The position numbers and the translations under genes were made by a program. The notes beneath the pieces were generated by a model that made no database searches, had not been told where the DNA came from, and was given only the letters and a program-made list of their open reading frames with translations. A stretch of DNA of 55,631 nt from an uncultured Mycoplasmatota bacterium. GTDB lineage: Bacteria > Bacillota_I > Bacilli_A > RF39 > UBA660. The stretch is taken from positions 1-55,631 of the forward strand of contig CAMMBL010000003.1 in the NCBI GenBank assembly GCA_946494015.1, read 5' to 3'. Positions 4,781 to 31,243 of the stretch are shown piece by piece (positions within the stretch are counted from its first letter, which is position 1; each line of letters starts with the position of its first letter).

Positions 4781-7589
4781 AAATAAAAAAAATAATTTAC
4801 TAATTCCTATAGCAATTATTTATATAATTCTAATTATAATTAGCTATTTTATACTAGGATTATTAGTAACTGTTTTTATGGGCGTTGGTATCTTAATAAT
4901 AATAGGTATTGCCAAACTAGTAGATAGTGTAAAAAATAAACCTAAGCAAAAAAAGATAGTTAATACTATTTTAATTATAATTTTATCTATTGGTATATTA
5001 GTTATGCTAGCTGGGATAGTCTTTATGATTTATATAGCTATTTCAGCTAATTCAAAATTTGATGCTAGCAAACTAGATAGTAGTGAACCAACTGTTTTAT
5101 ATGATATAAATGGTGATGAATATGCTAAACTTGGTAATGAAATGAGAGATAAAGTAACGTATGATGAATTACCTGAAGTATTAGTTGATGCTATTGTAGC
5201 TACTGAAGATTCAAGATTCTTTCAACATAATGGATTTGATGCTCCAAGATTCTTTAAAGCTTCTTTAGGACAATTAATAGGTAATTCAGATGCTGGTGGA
5301 GCTTCTACTTTATCTATGCAAGTAATTAAAAACAAATTAACATCACGAGTAGCATCTGGAATAGATGGAATTATTAGAAAATTCCAAGATATATATCTAG
5401 CTATTTTCAAACTTGAAAAAAATTATACTAAAGAACAAATAATAGAGTTTTATGTAAACAATCATGGATTAGGTGGAAATATATATGGTGTTAGTCAAGC
5501 AGCTAGAGTATACTTTAATAAAGATATTCAAGACTTAAATCTTGCTGAAGCTAGTATTATTGCTGGAATGTTCCAAGCTCCTAATACATATCGTCCTACT
5601 AATGAAGAAAATATAGAGGCTGTTACTAAACGTCGTAATACTGTTTTATACTTAATGGAACGACATGGATATATTTCTAAAGAAGAAAGAGAAATAGCAA
5701 GTTCAATTAGTGTTGAAAGTCTAGTCAATTATAATGAAACAGCTGATATTAGTGGTAATAGTGAATATCAAGGATATATTGATACAGTAGTAGCGGAAGT
5801 AGAAGATAAATATGATGCTAATCCATACACTACTCCAATGAAAATTTATACTAATTTAGATCGAGAAAAACAAGATGGTGTTAATCGAGTTATGAATGGA
5901 GAAAGCTATACTTGGATTAATGATGTTATTCAAAGTGGAGTTTCTGTACTTGATAGTGAAACAGGAAAAATACTAGCTATAGGAGCTGGTAGAAATAAAA
6001 CGGGAGTTAATACTCTTAATTATGCTACAAGTATAAAAAGACAACCTGGATCGACTGCAAAACCATTATTTGATTATGGACCATTAATTGAATACAATAA
6101 TGCTTCAACTTTTGGATATAATGATGGAAAAGATAACTATAAAATGTTTGTAGATGAACCATATTCCTATACTAATGGCAAAGAAATTAACAACTGGGAT
6201 GGTAAATTTATGGGTAATATGACTACAAGGAGAGCTCTTTCTTTATCAAGAAATATTCCAGCTCTAAAAGCATTCCAACAAGTTGACAATTCTAAAATAA
6301 TTGAATTTGTAGAAAAATTAGGAATTAAACCAGAAGTAGAAAATGGTAAAATTCATGAAGCTCATGCTCTAGGTGCTTTTGATGGTGTTAATTCCCTTCA
6401 AATGGCAGCAGCTTATGCGGCATTCTCTAATGGTGGCTATTATAATGAACCATATTCTGTAAGTAAAGTTGTCTTTACTCAAAGTGGTGAAGAATATGAA
6501 CATAAAAATAAAAAAGAAAAAGTAATGGAAGATTCTACTGCTTTTATGATTACAAGTATACTAGATGATACTAGTATTACTGGTGGAGGAGCAATTGATA
6601 AAGTTGCTATGAAAACTGGTACTACAAATTTTGATGAAAACTATCGTAAACAATTAGGGATGGCTGATGATGCTATTAGAGATTCATGGGTTATTGGTTA
6701 TACAACTAAAACAGTAATTGGATTATGGTATGGTTATAAAGAAACTACCCCTGAATCTGTTGCTCAAGGCTATTATTGCCATAACTTAGCTGGTACAGTT
6801 CAACGTGATAGATTATTTACTGCCTTATCTAATGAAGTATTTGAAAAGAATAAAGAAGATTTTAAAATGCCTGATAGCGTTGTTAAAGTACCATTAGTAG
6901 CTAACAGTAGTACAGCTAAAGTAGCTGGTACAGGTTATACTGGTTCCATAATATATGAATACTTTAAAAAAGATCATGAACCAACAGGTAAACAAGAAAT
7001 AAGCAATTTATCAGCGCCAAGTAATTTAACAGCTACTTATAAAAATGGTAGTGTTCATCTAAATTGGACTGGAGTTAATCCAGGAGTTACTGATTCTTCT
7101 TATGGTGAATTTGGATACAATGTATATCTAAATAATACGCTATTAGGATTTACAACTAATACAAGTTATACAGTTAATAATCCTAGTAATCCATATGGTA
7201 CTTATAAAGTAATTGCTACTTTCAAAAATTATGATGGTCTAGATAGTACAGCTGCTACTTATGAATTAAAGAAAAGTAGTGCTAATTTAAAAATTAATGC
7301 CAGTAGTATAAATGTTGATAAATTCTATATAAATGATATAACTAAATACTTAACTGTATATGATGGTAGTACTAATGTAACAAGTCAAACTAGTAATTGG
7401 ACATTATCAAGTATTTCAGGACCTACAACCTCAACAGCTACAACAGTTTTATCAACACCAGGTACTTATACCTTAAAATATCGCTTTACCTATGATGGTG
7501 AAACTAAAGAAACAGGTAACATAACGGTTACTATAAATGAAAAGAAAGAACCTGAAATATCAGAGCCTAGTACTGATCCTACAACCTAA
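4758..7589 (+). CDS. ponA: Class A penicillin-binding protein 1A with C-terminal FN3/Ig-like region
   Basis: Transglycosylase motifs ATEDSRF, GASTLSMQ, RKFQD; transpeptidase STAK, SRN, KTGT; recU-ponA operon. Confidence 0.93.
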   Translation: MTKKKTNKNKKNNLLIPIAIIYIILIIISYFILGLLVTVFMGVGILIIIGIAKLVDSVKNKPKQKKIVNTILIIILSIGILVMLAGIVFMIYIAISANSKFDASKLDSSEPTVLYDINGDEYAKLGNEMRDKVTYDELPEVLVDAIVATEDSRFFQHNGFDAPRFFKASLGQLIGNSDAGGASTLSMQVIKNKLTSRVASGIDGIIRKFQDIYLAIFKLEKNYTKEQIIEFYVNNHGLGGNIYGVSQAARVYFNKDIQDLNLAEASIIAGMFQAPNTYRPTNEENIEAVTKRRNTVLYLMERHGYISKEEREIASSISVESLVNYNETADISGNSEYQGYIDTVVAEVEDKYDANPYTTPMKIYTNLDREKQDGVNRVMNGESYTWINDVIQSGVSVLDSETGKILAIGAGRNKTGVNTLNYATSIKRQPGSTAKPLFDYGPLIEYNNASTFGYNDGKDNYKMFVDEPYSYTNGKEINNWDGKFMGNMTTRRALSLSRNIPALKAFQQVDNSKIIEFVEKLGIKPEVENGKIHEAHALGAFDGVNSLQMAAAYAAFSNGGYYNEPYSVSKVVFTQSGEEYEHKNKKEKVMEDSTAFMITSILDDTSITGGGAIDKVAMKTGTTNFDENYRKQLGMADDAIRDSWVIGYTTKTVIGLWYGYKETTPESVAQGYYCHNLAGTVQRDRLFTALSNEVFEKNKEDFKMPDSVVKVPLVANSSTAKVAGTGYTGSIIYEYFKKDHEPTGKQEISNLSAPSNLTATYKNGSVHLNWTGVNPGVTDSSYGEFGYNVYLNNTLLGFTTNTSYTVNNPSNPYGTYKVIATFKNYDGLDSTAATYELKKSSANLKINASSINVDKFYINDITKYLTVYDGSTNVTSQTSNWTLSSISGPTTSTATTVLSTPGTYTLKYRFTYDGETKETGNITVTINEKKEPEISEPSTDPTT

Positions 7590-25920: not shown

Positions 25921-26553
25921 TTATAACGTTTTATCTAAAGATACAGGTTTTAAAGCTTTCATAAATTCTAATTCTATAATTGATCTAAAAGCTCTACCTT
26001 TATCAATAACTTCATTAATAGCATCTTTATCAACATTAGCCCATGAAAAGTTAACTTCCCCTATTGGAAGTTCTCTACTCTTAGAATTTGCATATTCTCT
26101 TATAAACTCTCTAATAGTTCTACCATTACCTTCTCTAAACGGATGAATATTTAAAAGTTCAACATAATAAGTAGCAAGAAAAGAAGCAAAAGAAAACTTA
26201 GAATCAACAGTTTTAATTTCTTCATTCATCATTTTAAAAGTATAATCTAGTCTATAATCAATTTCTTCTACTGGAGCAAAATAAGAATTATTTTTTCCCA
26301 TATAAACAGTTCTATTTTTACCAGCAAAGGGATAAATATCTGAAAACAAATAAAAATGAATCATTCGCAAATGAGCAGTATCAAAATTCATATCAATTGG
26401 CTGCTTATATAATGAAACCATCTTCTCAAAAGTTATTTCAATTTCTTTTCTTTTTAATTCTTCTTTATCAGTTATACCTAAATTATTTTTCAAAACATCA
26501 CTACTAGGTATAAAATATTCATTCCATCTCTTTGTATTTTCAGCATCACTCAT
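25921..26553 (-). CDS. Fic-domain protein (canonical AMPylase motif)
   Basis: HPFREGNGRTIR; IH.YLF.DIY.FAGK.R.V. Confidence 0.9.
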   Translation of the reverse strand: MSDAENTKRWNEYFIPSSDVLKNNLGITDKEELKRKEIEITFEKMVSLYKQPIDMNFDTAHLRMIHFYLFSDIYPFAGKNRTVYMGKNNSYFAPVEEIDYRLDYTFKMMNEEIKTVDSKFSFASFLATYYVELLNIHPFREGNGRTIREFIREYANSKSRELPIGEVNFSWANVDKDAINEVIDKGRAFRSIIELEFMKALKPVSLDKTL

Positions 26554-26556
26554 AAA

Positions 26557-26721
26557 CTAAAGCCTCTCTTTATTTTTTAATACTAATTTTTTTTCTTCTT
26601 TTCTTTGTATATCCATTTCTTCTTTAACTTTCTCTATTATTAAATTAGGAACTATAAGAAAATCCATAGCAAAAGATGCTAAAACATCATCTATAATCTT
26701 ATTATTTACATCTCCCATCAT
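26557..26721 (-). CDS. Unannotated 54-aa ORF upstream of fic (candidate VbhA-like antitoxin)
   Basis: GAGGT RBS; MMGDVNNKIIDDVLASFAMDFLIVPNLIIEKVKEEMDIQRKEEKKLVLKNKERL; stop 3 nt before the fic ATG. Confidence 0.55.
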   Translation of the reverse strand: MMGDVNNKIIDDVLASFAMDFLIVPNLIIEKVKEEMDIQRKEEKKLVLKNKERL

Positions 26722-27997: not shown

Positions 27998-28888
27998 TTA
28001 ATTTTTTCTTACTTTTATTATATCATCTTTTTCTAACTCACCAATAAGTAAAGATGAATTTACATTATGCTGTTTATAATTACTAATAACATCACTTTCA
28101 TTATAATTAGCATAACAATAACGACAAAAATGTTTACAAGAATTATAATAACCTATATCAACCATTTCTACACAATTACATAGATTACCTTTTCTAATTC
28201 TACTTTTCTTAAATTTAGTCTTTCCAGTAAGCCTTTTAGCAAGTTCTACTCCTAAACAATCTCCTTTAATAAAACCATACTCTACAAGATTTTCTTTTTC
28301 AAAGCAAGTTTGTACTGTCATATTATATTTATTTGCAATAGAACTAAAAGATGTTCCTATTATTTTATAATCTTCAAAATCAAAAGGTTTAACTCTTAAT
28401 ACGCTCATATTTTTCCTTACATTTTTATAATCATCTATAAAAGAAACAATAATATGTTTAACATATCCATTAAGTAAACTACAAAGTCTCTTGAAGGCTT
28501 TAATATGATAAGCCAAATTATATTTATCACTCAAAAATATAGGATCATATCTAACATAAATATTATCACTTCCTATTATCTTAGATATTTCTATAACACT
28601 TTCTATTATCTTATCTTTATTAAATACATTAGGTTCAATATCTCTTTTATAAGGAGTAATTGTAACATTAAAAATAATTGGTTTATTTATCTCTTTTAAG
28701 TAAGGAATAATAGGTCTAGGATTCTTAGTACAAAAGTAAATCAAATCTACATCACTAAAATATATCCTACTAACTTGTTTCTTATAAAAAGGATTTCTAA
28801 CATCAACATATCCTTCCTTTAATCGTTTCATAAACCAAGGAGTATAGAATGCTACTATATCACATCTACCACTTACAAAAAGAATCAC
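27998..28888 (-). CDS. DUF1848 family protein
   Basis: ILFVSGRCDIVAFY..WF..RLKEG.V.VRNPF, FCTKNP, RYDPI, C.CV..VDIG.YNSC.H.C.YCYAN. Start moved to GTG 28888 (RBS AAGGT). Confidence 0.88.
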   Translation of the reverse strand: MILFVSGRCDIVAFYTPWFMKRLKEGYVDVRNPFYKKQVSRIYFSDVDLIYFCTKNPRPIIPYLKEINKPIIFNVTITPYKRDIEPNVFNKDKIIESVIEISKIIGSDNIYVRYDPIFLSDKYNLAYHIKAFKRLCSLLNGYVKHIIVSFIDDYKNVRKNMSVLRVKPFDFEDYKIIGTSFSSIANKYNMTVQTCFEKENLVEYGFIKGDCLGVELAKRLTGKTKFKKSRIRKGNLCNCVEMVDIGYYNSCKHFCRYCYANYNESDVISNYKQHNVNSSLLIGELEKDDIIKVRKN

Positions 28889-29047
28889 ATTTATCACTAC
28901 CTTAACACATATAATATTACAAAAACTTGAAACTAATTTATTACAGCTTCTATTGCTATACAAAATTTAATTTGATACTATATTTATAAGGAACATTTCA
29001 ATATGAGTGTCGTCTCCTTCCAACTTATAAAAGGAGGCTTGAAAAAT

Positions 29048-29140
29048 ATGAAAATTAAAACTTTTATATTAAGACTTTTAAAGTCTCTTGCTTTTATTAT
29101 TTTAAGCCTTGCCATATTGGTAATAGCCATTAAAATATAA
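29048..29140 (+). CDS. Unannotated 30-aa hydrophobic peptide, candidate type I toxin
   Basis: MKIKTFILRLLKSLAFIILSLAILVIAIKI; AAAGGAGG RBS; anti-SD CTCCTT upstream; promoter TTGCTA(28953)-17-TACTAT(28976). Confidence 0.75.
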   Translation: MKIKTFILRLLKSLAFIILSLAILVIAIKI

Positions 29141-29252
29141 AAACGGCACTCTAATCATCATGACTAGAGTGTCAAACCCATTTTTTGATGAGACATTCAC
29201 TTGACGAATTGAATTGTTCCTCTTTTTATATTGTATGAAAATTTTTTTTACA
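29141..29252 (-). ncRNA. Candidate antisense antitoxin RNA (about 110 nt)
   Basis: Convergent promoter TTGCAT(29281-29286)-17-TATGAT(29258-29263); terminator GACACTCTA...TAGAGTGCC-GTTTTT ending near 29141. Confidence 0.55.
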
Positions 29253-29296
29253 TATACATCATATCATAATTATTACATTTATGCAAATTTATATTT

Positions 29297-31243
29297 TTAA
29301 AATTCTACATATCTATTACTATTATAAATAGTTCCATCTACTTCTACATAAATAGAATATTTCCCACTAAGTCCTTCTTCATTAATATATTTAGTAACAC
29401 TAATACCTTCTTTAGTTTCTTCTTCTGTAAATATATCAACACATAAAGCTGTATAAGGTTTCCTACTTATAGGAACATTATAAATATTTTTTGTACCATT
29501 TTTGTAAAGGATAACATTAACATTAGTACCTCTTTTAAACTTACCAGTAAATACTAATCTATCAACTTCTTTAGTAATACTAATATTATGTTCTTCTTCT
29601 ATATCCTTAAAATCTTTACTATTTAAAACAAAACCTAACTTATTACTAGTAACAGGAGTTTCTCCTAAACTACCAACTCTTTCAGCTTTTTCTAAAGTAA
29701 AGTTTTCATTTTCTGGATACAAGCTCATCTTTTCTACTCGATAATTATTAGTAGGTAAAACGATTTCAAAGATAACCTCTCCATCTTTATATTCGACAGT
29801 ATCACTAACTAACTTATCCGCTCCACCAATTCCAGCAGGCTGATTAGAGTTCTTTCCATCTACATAAACTATACCACCAGAATGAATTATATAATGGTCA
29901 TTATCTAAGTAATCAACATCAGATATATAAGGAGAATAAAACTCACTACCACGTTCTTTTCCATATTCAAAGACTTGTTCAATAGTCATATTATCTGTAT
30001 CTATCTTATACATAACACCACGAGAATAACTATCACTAGCATCAACATATTCATCTTTATTTTTAGATTTATTATTACCATTATCAAAGATAAATACATA
30101 ACCTTCAGGAGTAATCATCGCAGCATGTTGACTCCATTGCCACTCAAAATCATCACCTACAGGTTTAAAGAAATACTTCTGATATTCACTACTCCAATTG
30201 GTAGAATCTCCTATTATCCAGTTTAAATCCCCACTATCATAATCTATATTAATAACAGCATCTTGATGTCTTCCAGATAATGTTATGGAATTCGTCTTTT
30301 CATCATACCAAACAGAATTATTATGGAACCAGTCATACTGTGTCCAGTTTTCACTCTTACCATCTTCCATATTTAAAACATCTTTTAAATCAAAATGTTT
30401 AACAATTTTACCAGTTTCTCTATCAAGTTCTACAACATAATCTTCAACAGTACCATCTCCACTAGTAAAATCATCACTTGCAACTAGCAAATTACCATTA
30501 GGCATTTCATAATAATCATGATGGTACCCTCCTGGTAAACTATACTCTTTATATATCTTACCTAACATATCCATCTCATATAAACCTGTCATATAATAAG
30601 GACTATTAACTAATCTTTCTGTACTTAACATTAAATGGCCATTATCGAGTCTATTAACCTCCCAAATAGAGTTAATAGTTAAATACCATCGAACACTCCC
30701 ATTTACATCATATGCACAAGTATAACCACCACTAGATGGTGTAAAGAAATATAAGTCGTTTGTTAATTCACTTTTATCAGCATTAACAGAAGTAGGCAAG
30801 ATAAAATCATCAGGTAATGCTTCCGTAGTAATTGTAAACTCACGTCTTACATCACCATATTCTACAACTACTATATTATCTCTATCAGGATAAAGTCCAT
30901 ATATAGGTAAATAATGTTCAGTTCCTTCCTCAAAAGTATATTCATAAGTTGTAAGTTCATCATCACCTTCTATAGTAACTTTAGGACTAACGGACTTCTC
31001 AGTCTTAAAGATAATAAGTGCCGTTAAAGGTGAAATCTCATAAGGATTAACAATTACATCAGCATCAGCAAGATCTTTAAGTTTTATAGGAAAATCATCC
31101 TCTAACTTACTCTCCCTCTCTATTAAACTACTAACAAATTTTACTTCTTTATTATTAGTACTTAAATCATTTAAAACTAAAAAAGAACCTAAAACTAATA
31201 CAAAAATAATTATAATAGTTATAATAACAATTTTCTTCTTCAT
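29297..31243 (-). CDS. Aryl-sulfate sulfotransferase (ASST), N-terminally membrane anchored
   Basis: NPY..SPLTALI.F N-terminal domain, YHHD, DWFHNNS, GRHQDAV, SQHA, FDNGNN, SPYISDV motifs. Confidence 0.88.
   Translation of the reverse strand: MKKKIVIITIIIIFVLVLGSFLVLNDLSTNNKEVKFVSSLIERESKLEDDFPIKLKDLADADVIVNPYEISPLTALIIFKTEKSVSPKVTIEGDDELTTYEYTFEEGTEHYLPIYGLYPDRDNIVVVEYGDVRREFTITTEALPDDFILPTSVNADKSELTNDLYFFTPSSGGYTCAYDVNGSVRWYLTINSIWEVNRLDNGHLMLSTERLVNSPYYMTGLYEMDMLGKIYKEYSLPGGYHHDYYEMPNGNLLVASDDFTSGDGTVEDYVVELDRETGKIVKHFDLKDVLNMEDGKSENWTQYDWFHNNSVWYDEKTNSITLSGRHQDAVINIDYDSGDLNWIIGDSTNWSSEYQKYFFKPVGDDFEWQWSQHAAMITPEGYVFIFDNGNNKSKNKDEYVDASDSYSRGVMYKIDTDNMTIEQVFEYGKERGSEFYSPYISDVDYLDNDHYIIHSGGIVYVDGKNSNQPAGIGGADKLVSDTVEYKDGEVIFEIVLPTNNYRVEKMSLYPENENFTLEKAERVGSLGETPVTSNKLGFVLNSKDFKDIEEEHNISITKEVDRLVFTGKFKRGTNVNVILYKNGTKNIYNVPISRKPYTALCVDIFTEEETKEGISVTKYINEEGLSGKYSIYVEVDGTIYNSNRYVEF

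Follow-up and report, generated by a model that had tools for sequence, protein, structure and literature searches.

A large unannotated family of putative type I toxin-antitoxin-like modules with a bsrG/SR4-like architecture in uncultured gut Bacilli

[quoted passage not shown] In the bsrG/SR4 system of Bacillus subtilis (BsrE-G-H group), the probed toxin mRNA carries a helix between its 5' and 3' parts (P1), which is opened by an antitoxin that overlaps its 3' end. Probing also showed that antitoxin binding turns nucleotides 1-33 single-stranded and extends the pairing of the Shine-Dalgarno (SD) sequence (PMC3834814). Here we describe a locus in a 55,631-nucleotide stretch of DNA (the window), in which a membrane-peptide gene facing a small putative antisense RNA gene fills the gap between two ordinary genes (Table 1). 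To our knowledge, the helix-opening mechanism has been demonstrated by experiment only for bsrG/SR4.

We consider it likely that the locus is a real type I toxin-antitoxin-like module, belonging to a sequence family that we did not find described and most likely working as bsrG/SR4 does. The plus strand would give a ~240-nt mRNA for a 30-residue cationic hydrophobic membrane peptide. The first ~24 nt of this mRNA would pair with the last ~40 nt before its U-tract, forming a long helix that encloses the ORF, and an upstream anti-SD would lock the ribosome-binding site; such a message should be stable yet hardly translatable. On the minus strand, a convergent promoter of the sigma-70 type, its -10 extended, would produce an antisense RNA of ~115 nt. 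This transcript would stop at a hairpin and U-tract overlapping the stop codon, and its complementarity would cover the 3' UTR and with it the 3' strand of the long helix. Contact could begin at the complementary loops of the shared hairpin. Pairing would then displace the mRNA 5' end and keep or tighten SD sequestration. RNase III would be offered a ~92-bp duplex, and RNase J or RNase Y a single-stranded 5' end, so that the toxin mRNA would be silenced and degraded. Genes for RNase III and for two RNase J paralogues are present in the host.

Table 1. Features of the locus, with positions counted from the first base of the window
Feature	Position	Strand	Basis or detail
Toxin promoter	28953..28981	+	-35 TTGCTA 28953-28958, 17-nt spacer, TGn 28973-28975, -10 TACTAT 28976-28981; sequence
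Predicted toxin mRNA, ~240 nt	28988..29228	+	both ends inferred; fold
Long-range helix, 5' strand AGGAACAUUUCAAU	28989..29002	+	fold, covariation
X box UGAGUGUC, partner of the 3' box, repeated in a hairpin arm	29004..29011	+	pairing counts
Anti-SD GUCUCCUU	29012..29019	+	pairs with SD in minimum-energy fold
Shine-Dalgarno AAAGGAGG, 10 nt upstream of AUG	29030..29037	+	sequence
30-codon ORF encoding MKIKTFILRLLKSLAFIILSLAILVIAIKI	29048..29140	+	sequence, translation
Hairpin just past the stop codon	29145..29173	.	minus: antisense terminator, stem 29171-29147, U-tract 29143-29131; plus: internal 3' UTR stem-loop
3' box GACAUUCA, X-box partner	29192..29199	+	fold, pairing counts
Long-range helix, 3' strand AUUGAAUUGUUCCU	29208..29221	+	fold, covariation
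U-tract directly after the long-range helix, presumed toxin mRNA 3' end	29223..29227	+	T-run kept in the family
Predicted antisense (antitoxin) RNA, ~115 nt	29137..29251	-	bounded by conserved promoter and terminator
Antisense promoter	29258..29286	-	-35 TTGCAT 29286-29281, 17-nt spacer, TGn 29266-29264, -10 TATGAT 29263-29258

The first-pass annotation had proposed a type I module from six features of this single copy, all of which are present, with coordinates agreeing within 1-2 bases. From related gut Bacilli we gathered 126 full-length copies, 88 of them added by a pattern scan. The features are more than chance, because they are conserved and covary in these homologous copies. At the sequence level, the type I reading is thus supported by hallmarks kept across a large family: a small Lys-flanked hydrophobic peptide under purifying selection, an SD held in pairing, 5' and 3' ends that fold back on each other with covariation, and a convergent promoter and terminator at fixed positions. 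Paralogous copies, which the annotation had proposed searching for, were found in the same genome: at least five complete copies are present in the 1.23-Mb host genome, three close and two divergent. Matches by blastn, scored up to 12 per genome, were obtained in 35 of 36 same-genus genomes, often in tandem. The family reaches 5 to at least 12 copies per genome; in reduced genomes of 1.0-1.6 Mb, this is a notable share of the intergenic space. Across the same bacterial family, the 5' motif occurred in 71 of 401 genomes and 38 of 145 genera, and a reversed control gave 0 matches.

The toxin promoter proposed earlier (TTGCTA-17-TACTAT) is present, and a TG at 28973-28974, missed in the first reading, makes its -10 TGn-extended. 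In 102 of the 126 copies, the best toxin -10 stops 6-7 nt short of the conserved AGGAAC 5' end, and the promoter spacer is 17 nt in 103. Folding of the predicted mRNA, a check suggested at the outset, gave -67.8 kcal/mol, compared with -37.3 +/- 4.1 kcal/mol for shuffled sequences (z = -7.5; 0/200 shuffles as good). A T-run of at least four follows the long-range helix in essentially all 126 copies. We did not find an ordinary terminator for the toxin mRNA, the local 3' hairpin (-4.3 kcal/mol) being no better than shuffles, and this counts against the type I module reading.

In the minimum-energy fold, GGAACATTTCAAT (28990-29002) is paired with ATTGAATTGTTCC (29208-29220) and TGAGTGTC with GACATTCA (29192-29199), which bears out both long-range pairings noted in the first reading; the TGAGTGTC box, at 29004-29011, is shifted by one base from the position implied there. 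Minimum-energy folds paired the 5' end to the 3' end just before the U-tract in all 126 copies, with compensatory changes. Cognate 5'/3' duplexes had a mean energy of -32.4 kcal/mol vs -27.0 kcal/mol with non-cognate partners, and were better in 116/126 copies (p = 1e-19). Helix position 10 alternates between A-U, G-C and C-G across copies, with 0/500 partner shuffles as good in an anchored, alignment-free pair table, and the aligned pair count, in which helix 1 is under-counted, gave 94.8% of cells paired vs 89.3% in shuffles and 38-51% with slid partners, with 12 pairs altered on both sides (0/500 shuffles); because the copies are interrelated, these shuffle statistics overstate independence. 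The under-count arose because, in the MAFFT alignment, the 3' strand of the long helix is displaced by one column for the window subgroup, and the anchored count was used instead.

Pairing between the X box and the 3' box was found in 99% of cells, again with compensatory changes. The direct repeat GAGTGTC, reported in the first reading, was located at 29005-29011 and 29167-29173. Among clearly identified hairpins, to which this comparison is confined as automatic picking missed several divergent copies, the X box co-varies with the hairpin arm in divergent subfamilies.

The complementary 5' and 3' segments could alternatively be the terminal inverted repeats of a miniature transposable element (MITE), with the ORF and the promoters incidental. 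In favour of this are its copy number (5 to at least 12 per genome), its length (~340 bp) and the ~13-bp inverted repeats near its ends. However, homology runs past these repeats as far as both promoters, and copies inside one genome are only ~70% identical. The pairing is kept by compensatory changes, and the conserved G-U pairs, including those between the X box and the 3' box, function on plus-strand RNA only. The ORF is moreover under frame-specific purifying selection. A DUF1848 gene adjoins a module in most close species, so the module, kept in this position across a clade of species, is a long-term resident. A MITE is thus a very improbable account of the family.

The anti-SD GUCUCCUU, first noted as able to pair with the ribosome-binding site, does pair with AAGGAGGC (29031-29038) in the minimum-energy fold. 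The predicted unpaired probability of the SD averaged 0.11 over 110 copies and was 0.005 in the window copy. Blocking the 3' UTR in silico raised the unpaired probability of the 5' end from 0.05 to 0.43 and lowered SD accessibility from 0.11 to 0.05, the SD becoming less accessible in 58/110 copies and more accessible in 7/110. In the window copy, the predicted SD stays closed whether or not the antisense RNA is bound (0.005 vs 0.035), a point against the bsrG/SR4-like reading because the peptide would then have no evident route to translation.

The 30-aa peptide is encoded where the first-pass annotation had placed it. It has a GRAVY of 1.9, a net charge of +5 and a 16-residue uncharged core flanked by Lys/Arg, laid out as a Lys-rich N-terminus, a hydrophobic remainder and a KI/KK end. 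The 16-residue stretch is short for a transmembrane helix, which weighs against a membrane toxin. The reading frame is under purifying selection (dN/dS 0.33 in frame vs 1.0 in frame +2; frame +1 is closed). An ORF of 30 aa is present in 72 of the 126 copies and one of 25-33 aa in most others; in ~10% of copies the ORF is broken or absent, which also counts against the preferred explanation. A 45-aa ORF starting at an upstream in-frame ATG (29003) was rejected as the product, because the SD falls within its codons and the frame is open in the closest orthologues only. A search with this extended ORF returned one unnamed ENA protein, 45 aa long, among 5.8 billion protein clusters.

The peptide could not be assigned to a named family in the first reading, and we likewise obtained no match for it in Pfam, NCBIfam, PHROGs or PDB; for five family peptides, Pfam and NCBIfam gave no family at E <= 1-10. 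A search of Rfam gave nothing better than E = 0.9, all matches being to unrelated eukaryotic or enterobacterial families. The family is thus absent from Pfam, NCBIfam, PHROGs and Rfam, and almost no gene caller reports the peptide.

A conserved small membrane or secreted peptide under cis-antisense control need not poison its own cell; it might be a small membrane-protein regulator or a leaderless cationic peptide hitting other cells. Purifying selection fits any functional peptide, and the 16-residue hydrophobic core and +5 charge resemble those of amphipathic cationic peptides. Furthermore, no relatives were found when the DNA was compared with phage and plasmid collections, and this missing link to known phages and plasmids counts against a toxin-antitoxin role. 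In contrast, layered translational silencing, with both the SD and the 5' end closed, is typical of self-toxic products, as is a convergent antisense gene devoted to the locus, its extended -10 being strong. Multiple copies, tandem amplification, subfamilies and occasional ORF decay are the pattern of a type I toxin-antitoxin family, and no transporter or immunity gene recurs beside the copies. We judge a non-toxic peptide unlikely.

On the other strand, the convergent promoter reported earlier (TTGCAT-17-TATGAT) is present and carries a TGn. This TGn-extended -10 is found in 124/126 copies, and it lies 29-30 nt from the toxin T-run in 102/126. The predicted antisense RNA is perfectly complementary to ~92 nt of the toxin 3' UTR; its 5' two-thirds are predicted to be unstructured, and its 3' end consists of an 11-bp terminator stem. 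A scan confirmed the minus-strand terminator of the first reading as the sole terminator-like site in 801 bases (0.1 expected). The hairpin is paired in 96.6% of cells, with changes on both sides in 6/8 pairs, and the last Ile/Lys codons together with the stop codon encode the minus-strand U-tract. A plus-strand U-tract after the hairpin is missing in most copies, and conserved 3' UTR elements lie beyond it.

The hairpin at 29147-29171 might be only the terminator of the upstream ASST gene, in which case the minus-strand promoter would be inactive and there would be no separate antisense RNA. No other terminator stands between the hairpin and the end of ASST (29297, minus strand), and family-wide, a gene reading in the antisense direction stops at the module in most cases (52 vs 21). 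However, the TGn-extended -10 and the -35 position are fixed in 124/126 copies whatever the neighbour, including in tandem arrays and at sites with no adjacent gene, and changes in the hairpin are matched in the X box of the toxin 5' UTR. A terminator with no antisense gene behind it is hardly credible in the face of this. The terminator and antisense roles are compatible, because read-through from ASST would simply add antisense RNA.

Within the type I reading, a more elaborate scheme is possible, if doubtful, and we offer it tentatively. Lacking its own terminator hairpin, the toxin mRNA would acquire a 3' end only once its 5' end closes the helix before the U-tract, which would make the 5' end necessary for both termination and end protection. 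In addition, a box of 7-13 nt is present in four copies, one in the 5' UTR, one in each hairpin arm and one in the 3' UTR, and all of them co-vary across subfamilies. This would allow the mRNA to switch between two conformations, and the antisense terminator arm to touch the toxin 5' UTR as a further contact in trans. RNAduplex comparison of the antisense RNA with the toxin 5' region gave long, loop-ridden duplexes and pointed only to GACACUC/GAGUGUC and CCUCC/GGAGG contacts. If this scheme is true, the module would be a hybrid of bsrG/SR4 (opening of P1 through 3' overlap) and par (repeat-mediated 5' contact), joining two established modes of regulation in a combination for which we know no precedent.

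Judged by its sequences, the family is large, unannotated and housed in uncultured gut Bacilli, with a bsrG/SR4-like architecture and unrelated sequence. It could matter for genome stability, phage defence or persistence, and its 126 diverged copies amount to a natural mutagenesis set in which helix opening can be studied.

The first-pass annotation had drawn parallels with hok/Sok, Fst/par and TxpA/RatA. The convergent 3' overlap is indeed shared with txpA/RatA, but hok/Sok and Fst/par are not the closest systems; the closest is bsrG/SR4. Like this locus as predicted, hok/Sok (plasmid R1) and aapA1/IsoA1 (Helicobacter pylori) have a full-length mRNA made inert by a 5'/3' interaction, with the SD sequestered (PMC4147584, PMC8594479, PMC6733600). 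Their antisense RNA, however, lies within the mRNA and pairs with the 5' leader or start region, whereas the antisense gene here is at the 3' end; their hosts are Gram-negative, and they have no sequence relation to the present family. AapA1 is likewise a 30-residue peptide and has a basic N-terminal half.

In par (Fst, RNA I-RNA II; Enterococcus faecalis pAD1), as predicted here, convergent RNAs are arranged around one hairpin, and the antisense RNA is similar in size (PMC4147584, PMC8594479). Also par-like is the GAGTGTC repeat in the toxin 5' UTR and near the hairpin, which co-varies across subfamilies and would make the predicted antisense RNA partly complementary to the 5' UTR. The present peptide is not Fst-like (no Pfam match), and its charge layout is reversed, with a Lys-rich N-terminus. 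The predicted toxin mRNA reads through the shared hairpin rather than ending at a bidirectional terminator, and the main complementarity is the 3' overlap. A translational block via direct repeats is not evident, because the repeat precedes the SD and the sequence complementary to it is hidden within the antisense terminator stem.

The Clostridioides difficile type I systems (CD2517.1/RCd8 and relatives) likewise have convergent genes with a long complementary region, and encode unannotated small membrane peptides with several paralogues per genome. They differ in that their toxins, of 34-59 aa and unrelated in sequence, have a hydrophobic N-terminus and a Lys-rich C-terminus, and their loci lie in prophages or adjoin CRISPR arrays; a hydrophobic N-terminus and a charged C-terminus are the arrangement of type I toxins in general (PMC6563280). 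In Bacillus subtilis, txpA/RatA comprises convergent genes overlapping at their 3' ends, its antitoxin is not complementary to the ribosome-binding site, and the proposed mechanism is mRNA decay triggered by RNase III (PMC4147584). TxpA differs in being 59 aa long and unrelated in sequence, and the present RNA has no Rfam match (which covers RatA if it is represented there).

The differences from bsrG/SR4 concern sequence, setting and detail. The family peptides match neither Hol_Tox nor any other Pfam entry, so no homology to BsrG, BsrE or BsrH was detected, and the RNA has no Rfam match. BsrG has a hydrophobic N-terminus and a charged C-terminus, an arrangement unlike that of the present peptide, which is Lys-rich at its N-terminus. 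In bsrG, a separate terminator stem-loop follows P1, whereas here the U-tract abuts the long helix, and the predicted antisense RNA is ~115 nt compared with ~180 nt. While bsrG is located on the SPbeta prophage, the locus here is chromosomal and multi-copy, in small-genome gut Bacilli. In architecture, the two nevertheless run in parallel. The toxin mRNA is ~240-290 nt long, and its 5' end and 3' segment lie in a long ORF-enclosing helix, predicted here and probed in bsrG. The SD falls in a double-stranded stretch of bsrG and, by prediction, of the present mRNA. SR4 and the predicted antisense RNA here both converge on the toxin gene and match the 3' part of the message, with the 3' strand of P1 in the complementary region. 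The opening of the 5' end on antitoxin binding is predicted in silico for the present family, as is a tighter SD in 58/110 copies, the antisense terminator loop would be free for a first contact, and RNase III is encoded in the host.

The first-pass annotation had proposed a type I toxin-antitoxin-like locus, which lies between the ASST and DUF1848 genes, and direct reading of window 28500-29700 placed its elements within one or two bases of the positions it had assigned. The predicted mRNA (28988-29232) folded at -67.8 kcal/mol, compared with -37.3 ± 4.1 kcal/mol for dinucleotide shuffles (z = -7.5). This fold contained all of the pairings listed in the annotation, namely 5' end with 3' end, X box UGAGUGUC with 3' box GACAUUCA, and anti-SD with SD.

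Features of the window locus and of related elements on other contigs of the same genome
Feature	Position	Strand	Basis
Toxin promoter	TTGCTA 28953-58, spacer 17 nt, TACTAT 28976-81	+	read from window 28500-29700
Extended -10 of toxin promoter	TG at 28973-74	+	sequence
Leader start, AAGGAACAUUUCAAU		+	sequence
X box, UGAGUGUC	29004-11	+	sequence
Anti-SD, GUCUCCUU	29012-19	+	sequence
SD, AAAGGAGG	29030-37	+	sequence
ORF, 30 codons	29048-29140	+	sequence
Hairpin directly 3' of stop codon	29145-29173		sequence
3' box, GACAUUCA	29192-99	+	sequence
3' strand of long helix, AUUGAAUUGUUCC	29208-20	+	sequence
UUUUU	29223-27	+	sequence
Antisense promoter, towards toxin gene	TTGCAT 29286-81, spacer 17 nt, TATGAT 29263-58 with TGn	-	sequence
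Second-subfamily module, complete, divergent	C48:~7070-7390	+	
Second-subfamily module, complete, divergent	C27:~2100-1780	-	
Lone antisense-promoter segment	C69:154-200		
Lone antisense-promoter segment	C13:5104-5174		

We assembled a family set of 126 distinct full-length copies. The best toxin -10 ended 6-7 nt 5' of a conserved AGGAAC in 102 of the 126, with a 17-nt spacer in 103, while the antisense -10 was TGn-extended in 124 and ended 29-30 nt from the toxin T-run in 102. Judged from sequence, each of the two promoters holds a fixed place in the module. From the fixed position of its promoter, the predicted antisense RNA would extend from ~29251 to ~29137 (~115 nt) and overlap the toxin 3' UTR by ~92 nt. 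Structure prediction left its 5' two-thirds unfolded and gave an 11-bp terminator stem at the 3' end; in a terminator scan, this minus-strand hairpin with its T-run was the sole terminator-like site in 801 bases (0.1 expected). The bases of the antisense U-tract (window 29131-29143) lie opposite the final Ile/Lys codons and stop codon of the toxin (29129-29140); one stretch of DNA thus specifies both the basic C-terminal residues of the peptide and the terminator of the antitoxin. Because most copies lack a U-tract after the hairpin on the plus strand, transcription of the toxin mRNA is expected to continue past it into the conserved 3' elements.

The view that the hairpin is only the ASST terminator is partly true and is compatible with a type I module. 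Across the 126 copies, the nearest gene on the antisense side was co-directional with the antisense RNA and ended at the module in 52 cases versus 21 in the opposite orientation, a bias by which neighbour read-through would add antisense RNA, never sense RNA. However, a terminator alone leaves the conserved extended -10 unexplained.

A six-frame search with the window peptide detected two paralogues in the same genome (48% peptide identity), whose DNA aligned with the window copy across the entire module, from toxin -35 to antisense -35. One paralogue stops at a contig edge (C17:23665-24019), and the antisense-promoter segment opens two other contigs (C13:1-120 and C63:1-120), beside what by eye was an apparent tRNA gene 3' end, indicating that the repeat breaks the assembly. 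Using a nucleotide profile, we found two further divergent complete copies in this genome, on contigs C48 and C27, and two isolated copies of the antisense-promoter segment alone. The C48 and C27 peptides (MRKMEKFLCYIIFSLVFVIITLIFALIRIVPTP and MRKIKKLLCLIIILLIILIYFIIIKLVPTP) both have a VPTP end, and the nucleotide likeness of these modules to the window copy lay mainly in the antisense promoter and 5' segment. Queried with window 29212-29260, the segment alone (45-50 nt, including the first antisense RNA bases) recurred at numerous sites, both in this genome and in related ones; the copy on C69 is followed by its own terminator hairpin. Each lone segment may represent an orphan small RNA resembling an antitoxin, or what is left of a decayed module. 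A CTTGTTCG(A/C)TTG motif, conserved in a subset of copies and overlapping or preceding the toxin -35 (e.g. C48:7033-7044, and in copies L025 and L014), could be an operator or a piece of another repeat.

With window 28985-29260 as the blastn query, 35 of 36 same-genus genomes gave matches, up to at least 12 and frequently in tandem. Of 401 genomes from the same bacterial family, 71 carried the 5' motif, spread over 38 of the 145 genera; none matched the reversed control. Species-representative genomes (596 Gb) were scanned with the pattern GGAACATTTN{3,5}TGAGTGTC, which matched at least 120 stretches. Among the matches listed, 74 stretches carried a total of 88 full-length modules, and most of these came from MAGs bearing the label uncultured Bacilli, Tenericutes or Erysipelotrichaceae; sources included rabbit, ruminant, Hadza and chicken samples, and Candidatus Onthousia faecipullorum and Firmicutes bacterium CAG:822 were among the carriers. 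The other listed matches, from unrelated phyla, fit the ~200 chance matches estimated for 596 Gb. Full-length modules were also seen in MAGs labelled Muribaculaceae, Roseburia or Cyanobacteria (L036, L052, L055, L071, L073, L079), which more probably reflects mis-binning or a wrong label than genuine presence. In L154 (ENA scaffold_32882, 755-2692), a close window-type module adjoins genes for a MerR-family protein and for a T4SS coupling protein (T4SS-DNA_transf); at least one module copy may therefore lie on a conjugative element.

The ORF had 30 codons in 72 of the 126 copies and 25-33 codons in most others, and was absent or truncated in ~10%. Substitutions around the family consensus, MK(T/K)(K/R)TFI(I/L)K(V/L)L(K/R)LIAIILLL(S/L)TLLVLAIK(K/I), were conservative. 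In a set of 69 unique coding sequences of 90 nt, heterozygosity at codon positions 1, 2 and 3 was 0.29, 0.17 and 0.33, and mean dN / mean dS was 0.33 in the ORF frame and 1.0 in frame +2, with stop codons closing frame +1. These patterns indicate that the peptide is real. An alternative reading, less probable than a toxin, is a regulated peptide devoid of toxicity. The window peptide (GRAVY 1.9, net charge +5) has an uncharged core of 16 residues (13-28), preceded by an N-terminal third rich in Lys/Arg and followed by a C-terminal K. An upstream in-frame ATG within the X box opens a 45-aa ORF (window 29003-29140, plus strand), consisting of MSVVSFQLIKGGLKN plus the peptide, in which the SD is read as codons; an 89%-identical version appears in one gene-caller report from an ENA assembly (P0001). 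This longer ORF is probably not the product, because it is open in the closest orthologues only; it may be a mok-like leader.

In the minimum-energy folds of all 126 copies, at least 9 of the first 12 nt paired with the last 32 nt before the U-tract. Cognate 5'/3' duplexes averaged -32.4 kcal/mol, compared with -27.0 kcal/mol for non-cognate ones, and were the more stable in 116 of the 126 copies (Wilcoxon p = 1e-19). In an anchored, alignment-free count, positions 1-11 of this long helix were 87-100% canonical, a level of pairing reached by 0 of 500 partner shuffles, and position 10 was A-U in 48 copies, G-C in 46 and C-G in 7. RNAalifold on a MAFFT alignment of 38 copies retained the X-box/3'-box helix and the hairpin. 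Together with the terminal helix, these had 94.8% of cells paired, against 89.3 ± 0.4% in shuffles and 38-51% with slid partners; 12 pairs had changed in both partners and none of 500 shuffles equalled the alignment on every measure, but as the copies are mutually related, none of the shuffle figures is a probability. Further copies of the X box, as the sense sequence or its complement, occupy both hairpin arms and the 3' UTR. This four-fold repeat confirms the direct repeat of the first-pass annotation, as its copies change together in divergent subfamilies: UUGAGUAC paired with GUACUCAA at -11.4 kcal/mol versus -4.1 with the consensus arm, and GUUGGGUGG with GCCACCUAAC at -16.1 versus -6.6. 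The comparisons argue that the RNA structure is under selection. In many copies, a GGAGG pseudo-SD lies directly 5' of the 3' box and could rival the true SD in pairing with the anti-SD; the window copy lacks it. The local 3' hairpin (-4.3 kcal/mol) was no better than shuffles, and the U-tract lies directly 3' of the long helix.

At one position of the box helix, G-U was the commonest pair, which is possible in plus-strand RNA only and argues against a DNA-level inverted repeat. These strand-specific pairs also make it unlikely that the module is a MITE, as do the homology extending past the repeats, the frame-specific selection on the ORF, the ~70% identity of the paralogues and the retention of the module beside DUF1848. 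Where DUF1848 was at least 84% identical, 20 of 24 other same-genus loci had a full-length module directly alongside; the five examined loci whose DUF1848 orthologue was 70-73% identical had none. Among the same-genus DUF1848 loci (L155-L184), the module subfamily differed between species, tandem arrays reached three copies (L177) and the gene beyond the module was ASST in only about one third; more distant species of the genus had the DUF1848 locus without a module. Elsewhere in the window (25921-26721, minus strand), a Fic motif (HPFREGNGRT) occurs in a 210-aa protein whose gene has a 54-aa ORF upstream on the same strand; the pair could be a Fic toxin and a small partner resembling an antitoxin.

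No match to the locus was found in Rfam release 15, no sequence matching the family peptides tested was found in Pfam, NCBIfam, PHROGs or PDB, and full-text literature searches returned no account of the module family. T1TAdb comprises 24 families, the Gram-positive ones named there with a 3'-side antisense RNA being Fst/RNAII, TxpA/RatA, YonT, SprA1, SprG and BsrE-G-H (PMC8594479). The type I toxins in a review of Clostridia have a charge layout opposite to that of the window-family peptide (PMC6563280). On sequence grounds, the module family is outside every named family, its transcripts and toxicity being predicted, and we file it as a putative new sequence family of the type I toxin-antitoxin kind, with a 3'-overlapping antitoxin and a bsrG-like RNA architecture.

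Since the 3' strand of the long helix is the complement of part of the predicted antisense RNA, that RNA has the same sense as the mRNA 5' end and must compete with it. When bound antisense RNA was mimicked in silico by blocking the 3' UTR, the mean unpaired probability of the first 10 nt rose from 0.05 to 0.43, and SD accessibility fell from 0.11 to 0.05 (down in 58 of 110 copies, up in 7); the SD of the window copy was closed with or without the block. In bsrG/SR4, probing placed nt 1-35 in pairing with nt 232-262 in P1, the counterpart of the long helix, and the SD in a 4-bp stem; on SR4 binding, bsrG nt 1-33 become single-stranded and the SD stem extends to 8 bp (PMC3834814). First contact is made via the SR4 terminator loop, decay depends on RNase III, and wild-type bsrG mRNA gave no in vitro product (PMC3834814). 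The host genome encodes RNase III and two RNase J paralogues. Because the predicted 5'-end opening resembles that probed in bsrG/SR4 and the host has these RNases, we propose that the module would work by the same mechanism, in which transcripts, toxicity, neutralisation and decay steps are all predicted. Unlike bsrG/SR4, however, the window-family toxin mRNA has no separate terminator, its U-tract directly following the long helix, and its X box is repeated four-fold. This repeat recalls the DRa/DRb repeats of par (PMC4147584), but its complement lies inside a stem and upstream of the SD.
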